The notes under the pieces: model-generated
Told to the model about the DNA's origin: nothing
The model's input: the letters and a program-made list of their open reading frames with translations, nothing else
Databases searched by the model: none
Part shown: positions 3,273-31,304 of the stretch, one piece after another
Layout: each line of letters opens with the position of its first letter
Numbering within the stretch: the first letter of the stretch is position 1
Assembly: GCF_003334405.1 (NCBI RefSeq)
Contig: NZ_QOWM01000001.1
DNA length: 64,000 nt
Strand: one strand, 5' to 3'
Source: Escherichia coli
Lineage (GTDB): Bacteria; Pseudomonadota; Gammaproteobacteria; Enterobacterales; Enterobacteriaceae
Made by a program: the position numbers and the translations under genes

Positions 3273-5123
3273 ATGGCCTTATTACAAATTAGTGAACCTG
3301 GTTTGAGTGCTGCGCCGCATCAGCGTCGTCTGGCGGCCGGTATTGACCTGGGCACAACCAACTCGCTGGTGGCGACAGTGCGCAGCGGTCAGGCCGAAAC
3401 GTTAGCCGATCATGAAGGCCGTCACCTGCTGCCATCTGTTGTTCACTATCAACAGCAAGGGCATTCGGTGGGTTATGACGCGCGTACTAATGCAGCGCTC
3501 GATACCGCCAACACAATTAGTTCTGTTAAACGCCTGATGGGACGCTCGCTGGCTGATATCCAGCAACGCTATCCGCATCTGCCTTATCAATTCCAGGCCA
3601 GCGAAAACGGCCTGCCGATGATTGAAACGGCGGCGGGGCTGCTGAACCCGGTGCGCGTTTCTGCGGACATCCTCAAAGCACTGGCGGCGCGGGCAACTGA
3701 AGCCCTGGCAGGCGAGCTGGATGGTGTAGTTATCACCGTTCCGGCGTACTTTGACGATGCCCAGCGTCAGGGCACCAAAGACGCGGCGCGTCTGGCGGGC
3801 CTTCACGTCCTGCGCTTACTTAACGAACCGACCGCTGCGGCTATCGCCTACGGGCTGGATTCCGGTCAGGAAGGCGTGATCGCCGTTTATGACCTCGGTG
3901 GCGGGACGTTTGATATTTCCATTCTGCGCTTAAGTCGCGGCGTGTTTGAAGTGCTGGCAACCGGCGGTGATTCCGCGCTCGGCGGCGATGATTTCGACCA
4001 TCTGCTGGCGGATTACATTCGCGAGCAGGCGGGCATTCCTGATCGTAGCGATAACCGCGTTCAGCGTGAACTGCTGGATGCCGCCATTGCAGCCAAAATC
4101 GCGCTGAGCGATGCGGACTCCGTGACCGTTAACGTTGCGGGCTGGCAGGGCGAAATCAGCCGTGAACAATTCAATGAACTGATCGCGCCACTGGTAAAAC
4201 GAACCTTACTGGCTTGTCGTCGCGCGCTGAAAGACGCGGGTGTAGAAGCTGATGAAGTGCTGGAAGTGGTGATGGTGGGCGGTTCTACTCGCGTGCCGCT
4301 GGTGCGTGAACGGGTAGGCGAATTTTTCGGTCGTCCACCGCTGACTTCCATCGACCCGGATAAAGTCGTCGCTATTGGCGCGGCGATTCAGGCGGATATT
4401 CTGGTGGGTAACAAGCCAGACAGCGAAATGCTGTTGCTTGATGTGATCCCACTGTCGCTGGGCCTCGAAACGATGGGCGGCCTGGTGGAGAAAGTGATTC
4501 CGCGTAATACCACTATTCCGGTGGCCCGCGCTCAGGATTTCACCACCTTTAAAGATGGTCAGACGGCGATGTCTATCCATGTAATGCAGGGTGAGCGCGA
4601 ACTGGTGCAGGACTGCCGCTCACTGGCGCGTTTTGCGCTGCGTGGTATTCCGGCGCTACCGGCTGGCGGTGCGCATATTCGCGTGACGTTCCAGGTCGAT
4701 GCCGACGGTCTTTTGAGCGTGACGGCGATGGAGAAATCCACCGGCGTTGAGGCGTCTATTCAGGTCAAACCGTCTTACGGTCTGACCGATAGCGAAATCG
4801 CTTCGATGATCAAAGACTCAATGAGCTATGCCGAGCAGGACGTAAAAGCCCGAATGCTGGCAGAACAAAAAGTAGAAGCGGCGCGTGTGCTGGAAAGTCT
4901 GCACGGCGCGCTGGCTGCTGATGCCGCGCTGTTAAGCGCCGCAGAACGTCAGGTCATTGACGATGCTGCCGCTCACCTGAGTGAAGTGGCGCAGGGCGAT
5001 GATGTTGACGCCATCGAACAAGCGATTAAAAACGTAGACAAACAAACCCAGGATTTCGCCGCTCGCCGCATGGACCAGTCGGTTCGTCGTGCGCTGAAAG
5101 GCCATTCCGTGGACGAGGTTTAA
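3273..5123 (+). CDS. hscA: Hsp70-type chaperone HscA
   Basis: ORF 3219-5123 trimmed to ATG 3273 (616 aa, [10 protein letters not shown]...); Hsp70 ATPase motif IDLGTTNS. Confidence 0.96.
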
Positions 5124-8335: not shown

Positions 8336-8532
8336 GACGGCGGAAAGGGCCGCAGTGGATAATACACTAACAGAACAATAATAACTCTCTTTTGCTTGAC
8401 AAAAAGAGAGTTACTGGCGAGTATTGTCTCCGCTGAGACGCGCTTGCATTACTACGGTAATACAACCTGCTGGAAAGGCCGCGAACCGGACCAGCAACAA
8501 AAAACCGCCTGATTTTGGCGGTTTTTTGTTTT
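8336..8532 (+). repeat. tandem duplicated sRNA-like module, copy 1
   Basis: About 195-bp unit beginning acggcggaaagggcc..., sharing ctctcttttgcttgacaaaaagagagttactgg and cctgctggaaaggccgcgaacc blocks with copy 2. Confidence 0.75.
8433..8532 (+). ncRNA. candidate small RNA (copy 1; diverged sibling), approx. bounds
   Basis: TTGACA at 8396-8401 with weak -10 about 17 bp downstream; strong intrinsic terminator aaaaaaccgcc-tgatttt-ggcgg + ttttttgtttttt (8498-8534); ryfB/ryfC-type by location. Confidence 0.4.
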
Positions 8533-8752: not shown

Positions 8753-8857
8753 GCTGTGAAGCACCTGCGTTGCTCATGTAACACAAGTCAACCTGCTGGA
8801 AAGGCCGCGAACCAGACTAGCAATAAAAAACCGCCAAATTCGGCGGTTTTTTATTGC
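8753..8857 (+). ncRNA. candidate antitoxin-type small RNA (copy 2), approx. bounds
   Basis: Predicted 5' end gcugugaagcaccugcguu is complementary, with 2 G-U wobbles, to the small-ORF mRNA leader (plus-strand 8270-8291); terminator 8825-8856. Confidence 0.45.
8825..8856. terminator. bidirectional intrinsic terminator (sRNA copy 2 / sseA)
   Basis: aaaaaaccgcc-aaattc-ggcgg-tttttt with A-tract upstream; directly downstream of sseA stop on the minus strand. Confidence 0.7.
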
Positions 8858-14882: not shown

Positions 14883-17195
14883 ATGCCTCGCTTGTTAACC
14901 AAACGCGGCTGCTGGATAACGTTGGCAGCCGCGCCCTTTCTCCTTTTTCTTGCAGCGTGGGGAGCAGATAAACTCTGGCCTCTACCGCTGCATGAAGTCA
15001 ATCCCGCACGAGTGGTCGTGGCGCAGGATGGTACGCCGCTCTGGCGCTTCGCCGATGCTGACGGCATCTGGCGTTATCCGGTAACAATCGAAGATGTTTC
15101 TCCACGTTACCTTGAAGCGCTGATCAATTATGAAGATCGCTGGTTCTGGAAGCATCCGGGGGTGAATCCATTCTCGGTGGCGCGCGCAGCATGGCAAGAT
15201 CTCACTTCGGGACGGGTTATTTCCGGTGGCAGCACGCTCACTATGCAGGTTGCTCGTCTGCTTGATCCTCACCCCAAAACATTTGGCGGCAAAATTCGCC
15301 AGCTCTGGCGCGCGTTGCAACTGGAATGGCATCTGTCTAAGCGTGAAATTCTGACCTTGTATCTTAACCGCGCTCCGTTTGGCGGTACGTTGCAGGGGAT
15401 CGGTGCGGCAAGTTGGGCTTATCTCGGAAAATCGCCTGCGAATTTAAGCTATTCCGAGGCGGCAATGCTGGCGGTTTTGCCGCAAGCGCCCAGCCGTCTT
15501 CGCCCGGATCGTTGGCCGGAGCGTGCCGAAGCCGCGCGTAATAAAGTGCTCGAACGGATGGCCGTGCAAGGTGTGTGGTCCCGTGAGCAGGTAAAAGAGT
15601 CAAGGGAAGAACCCATCTGGCTGGCCCCCCGACAAATGCCGCAACTGGCACCGCTGTTTTCGCGCATGATGCTCGGTAAAAGCAAAAGCGACAAAATCAC
15701 TACTACGTTGGATGCCGGTCTTCAACGACGTCTGGAAGAACTGGCGCAAAACTGGAAAGGGCGGTTGCCACCGCGCAGCTCACTGGCGATGATCGTGGTT
15801 GATCATACCGATATGCGTGTTCGCGGCTGGGTGGGATCGGTTGATCTCAACGATGATTCACGCTTTGGTCATGTTGATATGGTCAATTCGATCCGATCGC
15901 CAGGATCAGTGCTCAAACCGTTTGTTTATGGTCTGGCGCTGGATGAAGGCTTGATCCACCCGGCATCACTGCTGCAAGACGTCCCCCGGCGCACCGGTGA
16001 TTATCGACCAGGTAACTTTGATAGCGGTTTTCATGGCCCGATCAGCATGAGCGAGGCGCTGGTGCGCTCGCTGAACTTACCTGCTGTGCAGGTGCTGGAA
16101 GCCTATGGACCGAAACGGTTTGCGGCAAAGTTACGCAATGTTGGATTGCCGTTATATTTGCCCAACGGTGCTGCGCCGAATCTTTCACTCATTCTCGGCG
16201 GCGCTGGTGCAAAACTGGAAGATATGGCGGCAGCGTATACCGCGTTTGCTCGCCACGGCAAGGCAGGCAAATTGCGCTTACAGCCTGACGATCCGCTGCT
16301 TGAACGGCCTTTAATGTCGTCGGGGGCGGCGTGGATCATTCGCCGGATTATGGCTGATGAAGCGCAACCCTTGCCGGATAGTGCCTTGCCGCGCGTCGCC
16401 CCACTGGCATGGAAAACGGGCACCAGCTATGGCTATCGTGACGCCTGGGCGATTGGGGTTAACGCTCGCTATGTCATTGGGATCTGGACTGGCAGACCGG
16501 ACGGCACGCCCGTTGTTGGTCAGTTTGGCTTTGCCAGTGCCGTACCATTGTTGAATCAGGTCAATAATATCTTACTGTCGCGCAGTGCGAATCTGCCGGA
16601 AGACCCGCGCCCGAACTCAGTCACTCGTGGCGTTATCTGCTGGCCGGGCGGACAGTCTTTGCCGGAAGGTGACGGTAACTGTCGCCGCCGCCTGGCAACC
16701 TGGCTGCTGGACGGGAGTCAGCCGCCAACTCTATTACTGCCGGAGCAGGAAGGCATTAATGGCATTCGTTTCCCCATCTGGCTGGATGAAAATGGCAAAC
16801 GTGTTGCCGCTGATTGCCCGCAAGCGCGACAAGAAATGATAAATGTCTGGCCGCTACCGCTGGAACCCTGGCTGCCCGCATCAGAACGTCGCGCTGTGCG
16901 CTTACCACCGGCCTCGACAAGTTGCCCGCCATACGGTCACGATGCCCAGCTCCCGCTGCAGCTGACAGGCGTTCGCGATGGCGCGATTATTAAACGTTTA
17001 CCGGGCGCAGCGGAAGCGACTTTGCCGTTGCAATCAAGTGGAGGGGCAGGTGAACGCTGGTGGTTTCTGAATGGCGAACCGTTAACTGAACGCGGGCGCA
17101 ACGTGACCCTGCATTTGACGGATAAAGGTGATTATCAATTGCTGGTGATGGATGACGTGGGGCAAATCGCGACAGTGAAATTTGTCATGCAATAG
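14883..17195 (+). CDS. pbpC: penicillin-binding protein 1C (bifunctional glycosyltransferase/transpeptidase)
   Basis: 770-aa ORF MPRLLTKRGCWITLAAAPF starting immediately after yfhM stop; glycosyltransferase motif EDRWFWKH; SxxK transpeptidase motif. Confidence 0.96.
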   Translation: MPRLLTKRGCWITLAAAPFLLFLAAWGADKLWPLPLHEVNPARVVVAQDGTPLWRFADADGIWRYPVTIEDVSPRYLEALINYEDRWFWKHPGVNPFSVARAAWQDLTSGRVISGGSTLTMQVARLLDPHPKTFGGKIRQLWRALQLEWHLSKREILTLYLNRAPFGGTLQGIGAASWAYLGKSPANLSYSEAAMLAVLPQAPSRLRPDRWPERAEAARNKVLERMAVQGVWSREQVKESREEPIWLAPRQMPQLAPLFSRMMLGKSKSDKITTTLDAGLQRRLEELAQNWKGRLPPRSSLAMIVVDHTDMRVRGWVGSVDLNDDSRFGHVDMVNSIRSPGSVLKPFVYGLALDEGLIHPASLLQDVPRRTGDYRPGNFDSGFHGPISMSEALVRSLNLPAVQVLEAYGPKRFAAKLRNVGLPLYLPNGAAPNLSLILGGAGAKLEDMAAAYTAFARHGKAGKLRLQPDDPLLERPLMSSGAAWIIRRIMADEAQPLPDSALPRVAPLAWKTGTSYGYRDAWAIGVNARYVIGIWTGRPDGTPVVGQFGFASAVPLLNQVNNILLSRSANLPEDPRPNSVTRGVICWPGGQSLPEGDGNCRRRLATWLLDGSQPPTLLLPEQEGINGIRFPIWLDENGKRVAADCPQARQEMINVWPLPLEPWLPASERRAVRLPPASTSCPPYGHDAQLPLQLTGVRDGAIIKRLPGAAEATLPLQSSGGAGERWWFLNGEPLTERGRNVTLHLTDKGDYQLLVMDDVGQIATVKFVMQ

Positions 17196-17281
17196 TCTGT
17201 TTTGTCCCTGATTGTTGCTAAAACTCATTTTATTTTAAAAAAATGTTACCTTCATCAATAGTCAACGGCCCTGTTGCTCAT

Positions 17282-17287
17282 TATAAT
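17282..17287 (+). promoter_or_regulatory. candidate -10 hexamer (TATAAT) for ndk
   Basis: TATAAT 57 bp upstream of ndk ATG; -35 not convincing. Confidence 0.3.
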
Positions 17288-17343
17288 CCGCGCCATCTCG
17301 TACGCTGGTACAGACAACAACAGAACAATTTACAGAGGTAAAA

Positions 17344-17775
17344 ATGGCTATTGAACGTACTTTTTCCATCATCAAACCGAACGCGGTAGCAAAAAACGTC
17401 ATTGGTAATATCTTTGCGCGCTTTGAAGCTGCAGGGTTCAAAATTGTTGGCACCAAAATGCTGCACCTGACCGTTGAACAGGCACGTGGCTTTTATGCTG
17501 AACACGATGGAAAACCGTTCTTTGATGGTCTGGTTGAATTCATGACCTCTGGCCCGATCGTGGTTTCCGTGCTGGAAGGTGAAAACGCCGTTCAGCGTCA
17601 CCGCGATCTGCTGGGCGCGACCAATCCGGCAAACGCACTGGCTGGTACTCTGCGCGCTGATTACGCTGACAGCCTGACCGAAAACGGTACCCACGGTTCT
17701 GATTCCGTCGAATCTGCCGCTCGCGAAATCGCTTATTTCTTTGGCGAAGGCGAAGTGTGCCCGCGCACCCGTTAA
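17344..17775 (+). CDS. ndk: nucleoside diphosphate kinase
   Basis: 143-aa [24 protein letters not shown]; active-site NGTHGSD. Confidence 0.97.
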
Positions 17776-17835
17776 TAATTTCGTAAATGCCGCGTGCAAA
17801 CGTGGCATCCGTGCGCCAGAATTTGTACAATGCAG

Positions 17836-17880
17836 CGCCCCCGGACGAGCAGCCGCTCACCGGGGCGTTTCTTTTTTCAA
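17836..17880 (+). terminator. candidate intrinsic terminator after ndk
   Basis: GC-rich hairpin cgcccccgg...ccggggcg followed by gtttcttttttc. Confidence 0.5.
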
Positions 17881-17924
17881 CCCTCCAGGGGCCATAACGT
17901 GTAATAACGAGGCCGGAATAGCAT

Positions 17925-19079
17925 ATGTCTGAACAATTAGTCACACCTGAAAACGTCACCACGAAAGATGGAAAAATCAACCTGCTGGATCTCAACCGTC
18001 AGCAGATGCGGGAGTTTTTTAAAGATTTAGGTGAAAAACCCTTCCGCGCCGATCAGGTGATGAAGTGGATGTATCACTATTGCTGCGACAACTTTGATGA
18101 GATGACCGACATCAACAAAGTGTTGCGCGGCAAACTGAAAGAGGTGGCGGAAATCCGCGCACCGGAAGTGGTTGAAGAACAGCGTTCATCTGACGGCACC
18201 ATTAAATGGGCGATCGCCGTTGGCGATCAGCGCGTCGAAACGGTGTATATCCCGGAAGACGACCGTGCCACGCTCTGCGTCTCTTCGCAGGTGGGGTGTG
18301 CGCTAGAGTGTAAATTCTGTTCCACCGCCCAGCAGGGCTTTAACCGCAACCTGCGGGTGTCGGAAATTATCGGCCAGGTGTGGCGTGCGGCGAAAATCGT
18401 CGGCGCAGCAAAAGTCACCGGTCAGCGTCCGATCACTAACGTAGTGATGATGGGCATGGGCGAGCCGCTGCTCAACCTGAACAACGTCGTTCCGGCGATG
18501 GAAATCATGCTTGATGATTTCGGTTTTGGCCTGTCTAAACGTCGCGTCACGCTTTCCACTTCCGGTGTAGTTCCGGCGCTGGATAAACTGGGCGATATGA
18601 TCGACGTTGCACTGGCAATTTCCCTGCACGCGCCGAACGACGAAATTCGTGACGAAATTGTGCCGATCAACAAAAAGTACAATATCGAAACGTTCCTTGC
18701 TGCGGTGCGCCGTTATCTGGAGAAATCCAACGCCAATCAGGGCCGAGTCACTATTGAATACGTGATGCTTGACCACGTTAACGACGGCACTGAACACGCG
18801 CACCAACTGGCGGAACTGCTGAAAGATACGCCGTGTAAGATCAACCTGATCCCGTGGAACCCGTTCCCGGGTGCGCCGTATGGACGCAGCTCGAACAGCC
18901 GTATCGACCGTTTCTCAAAAGTGCTGATGAGCTACGGTTTCACCACTATTGTGCGTAAAACTCGTGGTGATGATATCGATGCTGCCTGTGGTCAGTTGGC
19001 GGGCGATGTTATCGACCGTACGAAACGTACCCTGCGTAAACGGATGCAGGGTGAAGCCATCGACATTAAAGCGGTCTGA
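17925..19079 (+). CDS. rlmN: 23S rRNA/tRNA adenine C2 methyltransferase RlmN (radical SAM)
   Basis: 384-aa [23 protein letters not shown]; radical-SAM Cys motif CALECKFC. Confidence 0.96.
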
Positions 19080-19083
19080 TAGC

Positions 19084-19125
19084 CATTACGCCACGGTTAC
19101 TTTATGTACCGTGGCGTAATGTTTT
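19084..19125 (+). terminator. intrinsic terminator after rlmN
   Basis: Perfect 14-bp stem cattacgccacggt / accgtggcgtaatg with 10-nt loop, then ttttatg. Confidence 0.75.
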
Positions 19126-19363
19126 ATGAATGAAGTATTAAGTTGCAATTGTCTGGTCAATATTAACGGTGCGTTTTTGCTGACTTTAAGGCAGTATGTA
19201 ACGATGCAACAGTAAGTTAGCCTTAGTGAATGTGGGCTTTGTCACGAGCACACAGACGGTCTTATACTGTATGATAACGGTTAACTTAACGGATGTTTCG
19301 CGGTGTGGGTGAGCATGATGGTTCACCGGCATCTCAATTCTCATTTAAACGTACCTGCAGCGA

Positions 19364-20377
19364 ATGAATACTGAAGCCACGCACGACCAAAATGAAGCAC
19401 TTACTACCGGCGCTCGCCTGCGTAATGCTCGCGAACAACTAGGACTTAGTCAGCAGGCCGTTGCCGAGCGACTTTGCCTGAAGGTTTCCACGGTACGCGA
19501 CATTGAAGAAGATAAGGCACCCGCCGATCTTGCTTCAACATTCCTGCGCGGATATATCCGCTCTTATGCGCGTCTGGTACATATTCCAGAAGAAGAACTG
19601 CTGCCAGGGCTGGAAAAGCAGGCTCCACTTCGGGCTGCAAAAGTTGCGCCGATGCAGAGTTTTTCCCTCGGTAAACGCCGCAAAAAACGCGACGGCTGGC
19701 TGATGACCTTCACTTGGCTGGTGTTGTTTGTGGTTATCGGCCTGAGCGGTGCCTGGTGGTGGCAAGACCACAAAGCTCAGCAGGAAGAGATCACCACTAT
19801 GGCCGATCAATCTTCGGCGGAACTGAGCAGTAATAGCGAGCAGGGGCAGAGTGTTCCATTAAATACGTCGACAACTACAGACCCGGCTACAACGTCCACG
19901 CCGCCAGCGTCTGTGGATACTACCGCAACCAACACGCAAACACCTGCCGTAACTGCGCCAGCACCAGCTGTTGATCCGCAACAGAATGCGGTTGTTTCGC
20001 CTTCGCAGGCAAATGTTGATACCGCCGCGACCCCGGCACCAACGGCAGCAACAACGCCAGATGGTGCTGCGCCGTTGCCAACCGATCAGGCTGGCGTGAC
20101 CACGCCGGTGGCTGATCCGAATGCGCTGGTGATGAACTTTACTGCCGATTGCTGGCTGGAGGTCACTGATGCTACCGGTAAAAAATTGTTTAGCGGTATG
20201 CAGCGTAAAGACGGTAATTTGAACTTAACCGGCCAGGCACCGTACAAACTGAAAATTGGTGCGCCAGCCGCAGTACAGATCCAGTATCAAGGGAAACCTG
20301 TCGATCTGAGTCGTTTTATCAGAACTAACCAGGTTGCGCGTCTGACCCTCAATGCCGAACAATCACCGGCGCAGTAA
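19364..20377 (+). CDS. rodZ: cytoskeleton protein RodZ
   Basis: 337-aa ORF; N-terminal HTH ([21 protein letters not shown]), single TM segment, Pro/Thr/Ala-rich linker. Confidence 0.95.
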
Positions 20378-20403
20378 CAGACGGGTAACGCGGGAGATTT
20401 TTC

Positions 20404-21522
20404 ATGCATAACCAGGCTCCAATTCAACGTAGAAAATCAACACGTATTTACGTTGGGAATGTGCCGATTGGCGATGGTGCTCCCATCGCCGTACAGTCCA
20501 TGACCAATACGCGTACGACAGACGTCGAAGCAACGGTCAATCAAATCAAGGCGCTGGAACGCGTTGGCGCTGATATCGTCCGTGTATCCGTACCGACGAT
20601 GGACGCGGCAGAAGCGTTCAAACTCATCAAACAGCAGGTTAACGTGCCGCTGGTGGCTGACATCCACTTCGACTATCGCATTGCGCTGAAAGTAGCGGAA
20701 TACGGCGTCGATTGTCTGCGTATTAACCCTGGCAATATCGGTAATGAAGAGCGTATTCGCATGGTGGTTGACTGTGCGCGCGATAAAAACATTCCGATCC
20801 GTATTGGCGTTAACGCCGGATCGCTGGAAAAAGATCTGCAAGAAAAGTATGGCGAACCGACGCCGCAGGCGTTGCTGGAATCTGCCATGCGTCATGTTGA
20901 TCATCTCGATCGCCTGAACTTCGATCAGTTCAAAGTCAGCGTGAAAGCGTCTGACGTCTTCCTCGCTGTTGAGTCTTATCGTTTGCTGGCAAAACAGATC
21001 GATCAGCCGTTGCATCTGGGGATCACCGAAGCCGGTGGTGCGCGCAGCGGGGCAGTAAAATCCGCCATTGGTTTAGGTCTGCTGCTGTCTGAAGGCATCG
21101 GCGACACGCTGCGCGTATCGCTGGCGGCCGATCCGGTCGAAGAGATCAAAGTCGGTTTCGATATTTTGAAATCGCTGCGTATCCGTTCGCGAGGGATCAA
21201 CTTCATCGCCTGCCCGACCTGTTCGCGTCAGGAATTTGATGTTATCGGTACGGTTAACGCGCTGGAGCAACGCCTGGAAGATATCATCACTCCGATGGAC
21301 GTTTCGATTATCGGCTGCGTGGTGAATGGCCCAGGTGAGGCGCTGGTTTCTACACTCGGCGTCACCGGCGGCAACAAGAAAAGCGGCCTCTATGAAGATG
21401 GCGTGCGCAAAGACCGTCTGGACAACAACGATATGATCGACCAGCTGGAAGCACGCATTCGTGCGAAAGCCAGTCAGCTGGACGAAGCGCGTCGAATTGA
21501 CGTTCAGCAGGTTGAAAAATAA
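20404..21522 (+). CDS. ispG: 4-hydroxy-3-methylbut-2-enyl diphosphate synthase IspG
   Basis: 372-aa [26 protein letters not shown]; Cys motif ACPTCSR. Confidence 0.96.
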
Positions 21523-21632
21523 TAACGTGATGGGAAGCGCCTCGCTTCCCGTGTATGATTGAACCCGCATGGCTCCCGAAACATTGAGGGAAGCGTTGAG
21601 GGTTCATTTTTATATTCAGAAAGAGAATAAAC

Positions 21633-22907
21633 GTGGCAAAAAACATTCAAGCCATTCGCGGCATGAACGATTACCTGCCTGGCGAAACGGCCATCTGGCA
21701 GCGCATTGAAGGCACACTGAAAAACGTGCTCGGCAGCTACGGTTACAGTGAAATCCGCTTGCCGATTGTAGAGCAGACCCCGCTATTCAAACGTGCGATT
21801 GGTGAAGTCACCGACGTGGTTGAAAAAGAGATGTACACCTTTGAGGATCGCAATGGCGACAGCCTGACTCTGCGCCCTGAAGGGACGGCGGGCTGTGTAC
21901 GCGCCGGCATCGAGCATGGTCTTCTGTACAATCAGGAACAGCGTCTGTGGTATATCGGGCCGATGTTCCGTCACGAGCGTCCGCAGAAAGGGCGTTATCG
22001 TCAGTTCCATCAGTTGGGCTGCGAAGTTTTCGGTCTGCAAGGTCCGGATATCGACGCTGAACTGATTATGCTCACTGCCCGCTGGTGGCGCGCGCTGGGT
22101 ATTTCCGAGCACGTAACTCTTGAGCTGAACTCTATCGGTTCGCTGGAAGCACGCGCCAATTACCGCGATGCGCTGGTGGCATTCCTTGAGCAGCATAAAG
22201 AAAAGCTGGACGAAGACTGCAAACGCCGCATGTACACTAACCCGCTGCGCGTGCTGGATTCAAAAAATCCGGAAGTGCAGGCGCTTCTCAACGACGCTCC
22301 GGCATTAGGTGACTATCTGGACGAGGAATCTCGTGAGCATTTTGCCGGTCTGTGCAAACTGCTGGAGAGCGCGGGGATCGCTTACACCGTAAACCAGCGT
22401 CTGGTGCGTGGTCTGGATTACTACAACCGTACCGTTTTCGAGTGGGTGACTAACAGTCTCGGCTCCCAGGGCACCGTGTGTGCAGGCGGTCGTTATGACG
22501 GTCTTGTGGAACAACTGGGCGGTCGTGCAACACCGGCTGTCGGTTTTGCGATGGGCCTCGAACGTCTTGTATTGTTAGTACAGGCCGTTAATCCGGAATT
22601 TAAAGCCGATCCTGTTGTCGATATATACCTGGTGGCTTCAGGTGCTGATACACAATCTGCGGCTATGGCATTAGCTGAGCGTCTGCGTGATGAATTACCG
22701 GGCGTGAAATTGATGACCAACCACGGCGGCGGCAACTTTAAGAAACAGTTTGCCCGTGCTGATAAATGGGGTGCCCGCGTTGCTGTGGTGCTGGGTGAGT
22801 CTGAAGTGGCTAACGGCACAGCAGTAGTGAAGGATTTGCGCTCTGGTGAGCAAACGGCAGTTGCGCAGGATAGCGTAGCCGCGCATTTGCGCACGTTACT
22901 GGGTTAA
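21633..22907 (+). CDS. hisS: histidine--tRNA ligase
   Basis: 424-aa ORF with GTG start, [18 protein letters not shown]; class II aaRS motifs. Confidence 0.95.
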
Positions 22908-22924
22908 GGAAGGAGAAGGACAGC

Positions 22925-23545
22925 GTGGAAATTTACGAGAACGAAAACGACCAGGTAGAAGCGGTTAAACGCTTTTTTGCTGAAAATGGCAAAGCACTGG
23001 CTGTTGGGGTGATTTTGGGCGTTGGCGCACTGATTGGCTGGCGCTACTGGAACAGCCATCAGGTTGATTCTGCACGCTCCGCTTCTCTTGCCTATCAAAA
23101 TGCGGTTACCGCAGTGAGCGAAGGCAAACCGGATAGCATCCCGGCGGCGGAAAAATTTGCTGCTGAAAATAAAAATACTTATGGTGCGCTGGCTTCTTTG
23201 GAACTTGCGCAGCAATTTGTTGACAAAAATGAACTAGAGAAAGCTGCCGCCCAGTTACAACAGGGGCTGGCAGACACGAGCGATGAAAATCTCAAAGCCG
23301 TGATAAATCTGCGTCTTGCTCGCGTTCAGGTACAGCTCAAGCAGGCTGATGCCGCGCTGAAAACCCTTGATACCATCAAAGGTGAAGGGTGGGCTGCCAT
23401 TGTTGCCGACCTGCGTGGTGAAGCATTGCTGAGCAAAGGTGATAAGCAAGGTGCGCGTAGTGCATGGGAAGCAGGCGTGAAAAGCGATGTTACTCCGGCA
23501 CTGAGCGAAATGATGCAGATGAAAATTAATAATTTGTCCATCTGA
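22925..23545 (+). CDS. yfgM: YfgM (ancillary SecYEG translocon subunit, TPR-like)
   Basis: 206-aa ORF with GTG start MEIYENENDQVEAVKRFF; single TM segment. Confidence 0.93.
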   Translation: MEIYENENDQVEAVKRFFAENGKALAVGVILGVGALIGWRYWNSHQVDSARSASLAYQNAVTAVSEGKPDSIPAAEKFAAENKNTYGALASLELAQQFVDKNELEKAAAQLQQGLADTSDENLKAVINLRLARVQVQLKQADAALKTLDTIKGEGWAAIVADLRGEALLSKGDKQGARSAWEAGVKSDVTPALSEMMQMKINNLSI

Positions 23546-26324: not shown

Positions 26325-26393
26325 TTATCCGTAAGTATTTTATCTGCCATTCCCTCTATGAATGTAGAGGGAATGGCTACCGGAGGAATTCAT

Positions 26394-31274: not shown

Positions 31275-31304
31275 AAAACCCTCTGTTACTACAGAGGGTT
31301 TTTT
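31275..31304. terminator. bidirectional intrinsic terminator between guaA and yfgI
   Basis: aaaa-ccctctgt-tact-acagaggg-tttttt. Confidence 0.75.

Follow-up and report, generated by a model that had tools for sequence, protein, structure and literature searches.

A probable leaky intrinsic terminator after rlmN and separate promoters for rodZ-ispG in Escherichia coli

RESULTS AND DISCUSSION

The hairpin that follows rlmN in Escherichia coli is a real, evolutionarily maintained terminator that some transcripts read through, and the arrangement that we regard as probable for this junction is a leaky intrinsic (Rho-independent) terminator combined with independent promoters for rodZ. The window referred to throughout is the whole 64-kb stretch of the E. 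coli chromosome that was analyzed, with the gene order pbpC-ndk-rlmN-rodZ-ispG-sroE-hisS. Open reading frames on the plus strand correspond to ndk (17344-17775), rlmN (17925-19079, annotated as rlmN in all E. coli genomes), rodZ (19364-20377), ispG (20404-21522), and hisS (21633-22907). The small RNA sroE (21522-21613), which is known and annotated in K-12, lies between ispG and hisS and was recovered as Rfam RF00371 with 116.6 bits.

A 601-bp query spanning the rlmN-rodZ junction matched once in each of 5426 of 5426 complete E. coli genomes, with rlmN and rodZ annotations. The match in strain P276M has 76% identity over the junction and frameshifted genes; we considered it as a divergent allele and rejected this in favor of an error-laden assembly. 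Two assemblies labeled "complete," those of P276M and strain C10, carry frameshifted or internally stopped rlmN and rodZ, and these broken genes look like assembly errors rather than real alleles. Published positions in K-12 MG1655 (NC_000913.3), where the genes lie on the minus strand, were converted as 2662208 minus the window position. Positions given on U00096.2 by Romero et al. (2014, PMC4681348) equal those of NC_000913.3 minus 1978, an offset validated by agreement to within 1 nt between their start sites and those of SMRT-Cappable-seq (PMC6131387). The record NC_000913.3 has no annotated feature between rlmN and rodZ.

A stable single-copy hairpin directly follows rlmN

The hairpin starts 5 nt downstream of the rlmN stop codon (TGA, 19077-19079) and comprises a 5' arm, CATTACGCCACGGT (19084-19097), a 10-nt loop, UACUUUAUGU (19098-19107), and a 3' arm, ACCGTGGCGTAATG (19108-19121), that is the perfect complement of the 5' arm. 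The sequence directly after the 3' arm is TTTTATGAATG, in which TTTT (19122-19125) is followed by ATGAATG, so the transcript has only a short U-run, UUUUAU (19122-19127). The post-stem tract UUUUAUGA holds 4 consecutive U and 5 U in its first 8 positions; the tail of the ndk terminator, UUUCUUUUUU, is stronger, and the tract of an intrinsic terminator is ∼7 to 9 nt long. The initial annotation had described a perfect 14-bp stem and a U-tract just after rlmN, and this description is accurate to the base, with 19084-19125 being exactly the stem-loop plus T4, provided that the U-run is understood to be short.

RNAfold adds two inner pairs to the stem (19099-19107 and 19100-19106), leaving a 5-nt apical loop and a 1-nt bulge, and gives an energy of -26 kcal/mol (z = -6.5), with none of 200 shuffled sequences folding as well. 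Nine of the 16 pairs (14 perfect plus 2 inner) are G-C, and 4 of the 5 basal pairs are A-U. A stable, G+C-containing stem-loop thus stands directly upstream of the putative release site, as in intrinsic terminators. Our consensus terminator scan missed the hairpin only through its loop limit of 8, and a d'Aubenton-Carafa-type score was positive for both E. coli (+10.7) and E. albertii (+6.9).

The canonical intrinsic terminator of ndk, 1.2 kb upstream in the same window (hairpin at about 17836-17867, 3' end at 17872), provides a local standard of comparison. Both elements sit at the 3' end of a gene, consist of a stable stem-loop with a U-run directly after it, have in vivo RNA 3' ends in that U-run, and allow partial read-through that gives longer operon variants. 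The rlmN element differs from that of ndk in its shorter U-run (UUUUAU versus UUUCUUUUUU), in the A-U-rich base of its stem, in its position 5 nt past the stop codon, and in a lower published termination statistic (0.64 to 0.75 versus 0.78 to 0.97; see below).

That the palindrome arose by chance, or is a REP-like repeat with no role in the formation of RNA 3' ends, is a reading to which we give almost no credence. Palindromes do occur in intergenic DNA, and nothing further speaks for it. The 64-kb window holds 3 perfect inverted repeats with arms of 14 bp or more and loops of 3 to 12 nt, 40 dinucleotide-preserving shuffles gave none, and the hairpin occurs once and only once in each of 5424 E. 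coli genomes. An Rfam 15 search of positions 17000-23000 at an E value of ≤1 returned sroE as its sole match, and nothing at the hairpin. The hairpin does share with REP/BIME elements its character as an intergenic palindrome just past a stop codon that could stabilize the upstream mRNA, but it is single copy where those elements occur in many copies, and its sequence varies between genera; the possibility of a REP-like or mobile repeat was rejected on copy number. We know of no resemblance between the hairpin and the REP consensus. Together with the covarying pairs and the mapped 3' end at the expected place, both described below, the shuffles and the copy number refute this reading.

The window contains other perfect inverted repeats of 11 to 16 bp, at 8382-8413, 8496-8530, 8820-8857, 26346-26377, 31275-31302, and 35518-35546. 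The repeats at 8496 and 8820 are flanked on each side by A-runs and T-runs, the anatomy of bidirectional terminators, and match published 3' ends near ryfA, timR, and sseA.

Pairing is conserved across genera, the U-run is not

In a 55-nt search, 3434 of 5424 E. coli genomes differed from the window by 1 or 2 bases. Position 19121 is G in the window and in K-12-like strains and C in UTI89, the sole differing genome that we read, which reduces the stem to 13 bp there. The outermost pair is accordingly C-G in K-12-like strains and the window, a C.C mismatch in UTI89, and G-C in E. albertii, and from these sequences the 14th pair appears to be restricted to K-12-like strains. Compensatory changes relative to Citrobacter and E. 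albertii also support the stem. Between Escherichia and Citrobacter, three pairs have changed on both sides (A-U/G-C, G-C/A-U, and C-G/U-A). Over Escherichia and Citrobacter together there are four double-changed pairs and 89% of cells are paired, compared with 19 to 51% in slid registers, where sliding by -3 to +2 left no double-changed pair and sliding by +3 left one. On this alignment evidence, compensatory change keeps the stem paired in both genera, which shows selection on pairing.

Among Enterobacteriaceae with a short rlmN-rodZ spacer, a strong hairpin of 13 to 17 pairs (-20 to -28 kcal/mol) is found almost everywhere at the orthologous position, beginning 0 to 15 nt past the rlmN stop codon, with z scores of -5 to -7.6 for those folded together with shuffles. 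From one genus to another, the stem sequences are unrelated. What is kept in the Enterobacteriaceae examined is therefore the hairpin and not the combination of hairpin and U-tract: a U-run follows it only in Escherichia, with UUUU also in one soil metagenome-assembled genome (MAG) lineage, and most of the other hairpins have 1 to 4 T in the first 8 positions. The same d'Aubenton-Carafa-type score falls clearly below zero in Citrobacter, Enterobacter, Pluralibacter, Superficieibacter, Pseudocitrobacter, and Pseudescherichia. Since most relatives' hairpins have no U-run, the structure may be selected for something besides canonical termination. The E. coli hairpin itself can be counted among ordinary intrinsic terminators, probably as one of moderate efficiency, and departs from the type only in that its U-run is not conserved in other genera. 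In Enterobacter sp. BIGb0383 (3667-3720 of the locus extracted from that genome), the hairpin after rlmN is preceded by A8 with no T after it, and it would thus be a canonical terminator for the opposite strand only.

RNA 3' ends map to the U-run and some transcripts read through

Published transcript-end maps place an RNA 3' end in vivo inside the U-run. The TRS data set (Nat Commun 2023, PMC10687069) lists a terminus classed as "Primary" for rlmN at K-12 position 2643081, 2643082, or 2643083 in at least three table entries, with P values of 1e-9 to 1e-55; these positions correspond to 19127-19125 in the window, 4 to 6 nt past the stem, and the authors' own fold is the identical hairpin at -26 kcal/mol. 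Mapping of 3' ends does not distinguish release at a site from trimming back to a hairpin, so that factor-independent release at this position is what we infer from the end together with the structure. The three-condition Term-seq tables of Adams et al. (2021, PMC7815308) list 3' ends at 2644336 (the ndk terminator), 2642944, and 2642824, and no 3' end at 26430xx. The tables of the TERMITe paper contain no rows for the rlmN-rodZ locus.

The initial annotation had called the terminator strong and had it isolating rlmN from rodZ-ispG, and both terms overstate the case. Complete insulation of rlmN from rodZ-ispG by an efficient terminator, with no read-through of any consequence, would be in keeping with the very stable stem, with the separate rlmN and rodZ operons of RegulonDB (given as a column in the SMRT-Cappable-seq table, PMC6131387), and with the "Primary" class of the rlmN terminus, a class reserved for genes that come last in every transcription unit assigned to them by EcoCyc. 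We consider it highly improbable. The TRS statistic R = L/(L+D), described as "1 minus read-through," is 0.64, 0.71, and 0.75 for the rlmN terminus, below the 0.78, 0.88, and 0.97 of ndk; the rlmN values are lowered by reads from the rodZ promoter P1, which starts 77 nt downstream, and are not a true efficiency. The short U-run and the A-U-rich stem base argue in the same direction. SMRT-Cappable-seq (PMC6131387) reports primary transcripts from the rlmN and ndk promoters that fully cover rlmN and rodZ, namely the variants rlmN-rodZ (start at 2644379) and ndk-rlmN-rodZ (start at 2644913), alongside ndk alone, rodZ alone (2642932 and 2643004), and rodZ-ispG-hisS (2642925 and 2643004). For rlmN, the tables give a single transcriptional context in M9 and two in rich medium, with neither an rlmN-only variant nor a termination site at the hairpin among the entries. 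Because the longest read defines the operon in that method where no termination site is called, these rows prove that read-through exists but give no fraction for it.

An alternative origin for the mapped end is that transcripts end or are cut farther downstream in the spacer and are trimmed by 3'-to-5' exonucleases back to the base of the hairpin, which would then be mainly a barrier to decay and the mapped end a processing product. The strong hairpins found 0 to 15 nt past rlmN in the Enterobacteriaceae examined, most of them with no U-run, would fit such a role, as would the read-through RNAs and the restriction of positive terminator scores to Escherichia. Dar and Sorek (2018, PMC6061677) describe Rho-dependent transcripts that are trimmed back to stable stems, and the processed ends of such transcripts carry a strong hairpin with no U-run. 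The orthologous hairpins of Citrobacter, Enterobacter, Pluralibacter, Superficieibacter, Pseudocitrobacter, and Pseudescherichia resemble these processed ends; the E. coli hairpin, unlike them, has a U-run and C-poor RNA downstream.

For E. coli, we regard trimming as an unlikely source of the rlmN 3' end. UUUU stands directly at the stem in both E. coli and E. albertii, with the mapped ends inside it, and the tables of PMC7815308 and PMC10687069 contain no precursor 3' end between 19128 and 19263. The spacer would also be a poor loading site for Rho: in every 78-nt window of the spacer RNA, C makes up 10 to 19% and G 23 to 29% (C/G ratio of 0.44 to 0.8), so that no C-rich, G-poor untranslated loading region was found across the spacer, and the RNA upstream of the hairpin is coding. 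Rho-dependent termination within the spacer is disfavored by this composition, and Rho is unlikely to act here in E. coli because the RNA is translated to within 5 nt upstream of the hairpin and the spacer is C-poor.

Under the leaky intrinsic terminator that we favor, RNA polymerase would transcribe UUUUAU (19122-19127) while the 14+2-bp hairpin (about -26 kcal/mol) forms in its exit channel, and the weak rU:dA hybrid would give way to release the RNA at 19125-19127. Most rlmN transcripts would end here, and some polymerases would proceed into rodZ. Three features may hold efficiency below the maximum: only four U are uninterrupted, the five basal pairs are mostly A-U, and the 5' arm, lying 5 nt past the stop codon, would be covered by the terminating ribosome. 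Expression of rodZ-ispG(-hisS) would be independent of read-through, with the promoters P1 and P2 initiating most rodZ transcripts.

Two promoters in the spacer serve rodZ

The proposal that rodZ-ispG has its own promoter or promoters is borne out by start sites mapped in the spacer by two independent methods, at 19203/4 and at 19276-19283. Romero et al. (2014, PMC4681348) list a class I start site at 2641025-27 (U00096.2), equivalent to window position 19203; class I sites are TAP enriched (5'-triphosphate) and mark the leading edge of transcription. They also list a class II site at 2640948, equivalent to 19282. SMRT-Cappable-seq (PMC6131387) found 5' ends of primary transcripts of rodZ and rodZ-ispG-hisS at 19204, 19276, and 19283. 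The P1 start (19203-19204, plus strand) thus combines the class I site with the SMRT-Cappable-seq end at 2643004, and the P2 starts (19276-19283, plus strand) combine the SMRT-Cappable-seq ends at 2642932 and 2642925 with the class II site.

P2 (19239-19268, plus strand) has a recognizable promoter sequence, with a -35 element TTGTCA (19239), an 18-bp spacer, and a -10 element TATACT (19263-19268), and scored 10 of 12 in our scan. The start at 19276 is served by TATACT, which is conserved across genera in the alignment, and those at 19282/3 by an overlapping TATGAT (19270-19275). Upstream of P1, two blocks, ACGGTGCGTTT (19167-19177) and GGCAGTATGTA (19190-19200), are invariant or nearly so in 13 genera and sit at about -35 and -10. 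As a sigma-70 -35 element, P1 offers only a poor match (GTGCGT or TGCGTT), and we recognized in the two blocks no consensus for sigma-E, -H, -28, or -54.

Several further features lie in or near the rodZ leader. PMC4681348 lists an sRNA candidate, ECS174 (Shinhara 2011), at 19203-19265, which begins at the P1 class I start and whose 3' end matches the Term-seq end at K-12 2642944 (window 19264), inside the P2 -10 element. Folding of the P1 leader (19203-19390) gave no global structure signal (z = 0.04), with only a local stem at 19302-19333 supported. Conservation of this stem-loop, GGUGUGGGUGA...UCACCGGCAUC, extends over 13 genera; 76% of cells pair, compared with 36 to 54% when the register is slid, and both sides have changed in four pairs. 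A 3' end at K-12 2642824 (window 19384) falls 20 nt inside the rodZ open reading frame in two conditions (Adams et al., PMC7815308). Farther downstream, SMRT-Cappable-seq (PMC6131387) reports an ispG-hisS-yfgM transcript starting at K-12 2641981 (window 20227), which is a promoter within the 3' part of rodZ.

The initial annotation had suggested that rodZ-ispG is not expressed by simple read-through. The part of this suggestion that concerns promoters stands, and the implied insulation does not, given the rlmN-rodZ and ndk-rlmN-rodZ RNAs.

The spacer looks like a decayed remnant of pilW

The spacer (19126-19363) is 238 bp long with 42.4% G+C, against 52.2% for the window, which agrees with an earlier description of about 240 bp of AT-rich sequence, if only moderately AT-rich. 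Relatives outside the Enterobacteriaceae sensu stricto have an intact gene in its place. The rlmN-rodZ interval of Yersinia, Erwinia, Pantoea, Pectobacterium, Brenneria, and Rahnella is occupied by a gene of ∼245 codons that overlaps the start of rodZ. This gene is pilW, which encodes a type IV pilus biogenesis/stability TPR lipoprotein, with scores of 260.8 and 194.4 bits against TIGR02521 (cutoff, 154); it lies at 3896-4648 and 3748-4479 of two extracted loci from outside the Enterobacteriaceae sensu stricto (L022 and L019, respectively).

Positions 71 to 142 of the E. coli spacer (19150-19221, plus strand) match the central part of pilW with 75 to 78% identity, and collinearly with the start of rodZ, in blastn and tblastn comparisons with pilW of Yersinia, Erwinia, Rahnella, Pectobacterium, and Brenneria, and encode the relic NNYGAFL..L.QYV..QQ. 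Every Enterobacteriaceae spacer examined retains such a remnant (NNYGAFL..L.QYV..QQQFS, PilW residues about 104 to 130), with stops and frameshifts beyond it and E values down to 1e-8 in a small database. By these sequence comparisons, the AT-rich spacer appears to be a decayed pilW gene. The fragment that has survived best contains ACGGTGCGTTT and GGCAGTATGTA and coincides with positions -35 to +1 of rodZ P1. Most simply, pilW would have contained a promoter that was kept as the gene itself disappeared. Our literature search found no mention of a decayed pilW with a retained promoter.

An open frame at 19285-19375 (29 protein letters) has ATG codons at 19315 and 19318 and a TGA that overlaps the rodZ start codon region. 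Its ANEY* end is a relic of the PilW C terminus, and with the TGA overlapping the rodZ start, a short upstream open reading frame coupled to rodZ translation is possible.

The ndk terminator lies in the rlmN leader

The start sites of rlmN fall at K-12 2644379 and 2644371 (window 17829 and 17837), and the stem of the ndk terminator occupies about 17836-17867 with its 3' end at 17872. The second of these positions is an unlabeled value in the last column of the ndk row of a TRS table (PMC10687069), which we take to be a start site. Because the rlmN starts lie upstream of the ndk terminator, every rlmN transcript must read through it, and the terminator acts as an attenuator in the rlmN leader.

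Implications for the junction and its evolution

The analysis confirms that rlmN and rodZ-ispG-hisS, the latter being essential genes, are separate and leakily connected transcription units. The rlmN 3' end, the rodZ start sites, and the operon variants are already present in published E. coli K-12 tables, and databases already treat rlmN and rodZ as separate units; our literature search returned no dedicated study of the junction. The rlmN terminator is ordinary, and its significance goes little beyond bookkeeping.

A wider account of the locus is possible, which we offer tentatively and at clearly less than even confidence. The hairpin may be an old boundary element of the Enterobacteriaceae that is selected for its structure, either as a decay barrier or as a ribosome-gated conditional terminator, with the U-run gained only in Escherichia. 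The second role is conceivable because a ribosome halted at the rlmN stop codon could reach the hairpin. The element would stand at the edge of a fossil pilW gene, of which the sole surviving piece would have been kept for the P1 promoter that drives rodZ-ispG.

Two by-products of this work bear on operon evolution, and neither changes the current understanding of termination. The first is that a hairpin can be conserved as a structure across genera when the U-run beside it is not, and the second is the apparent origin of the rlmN-rodZ spacer by decay of pilW, with an internal promoter that may have outlived the gene itself.
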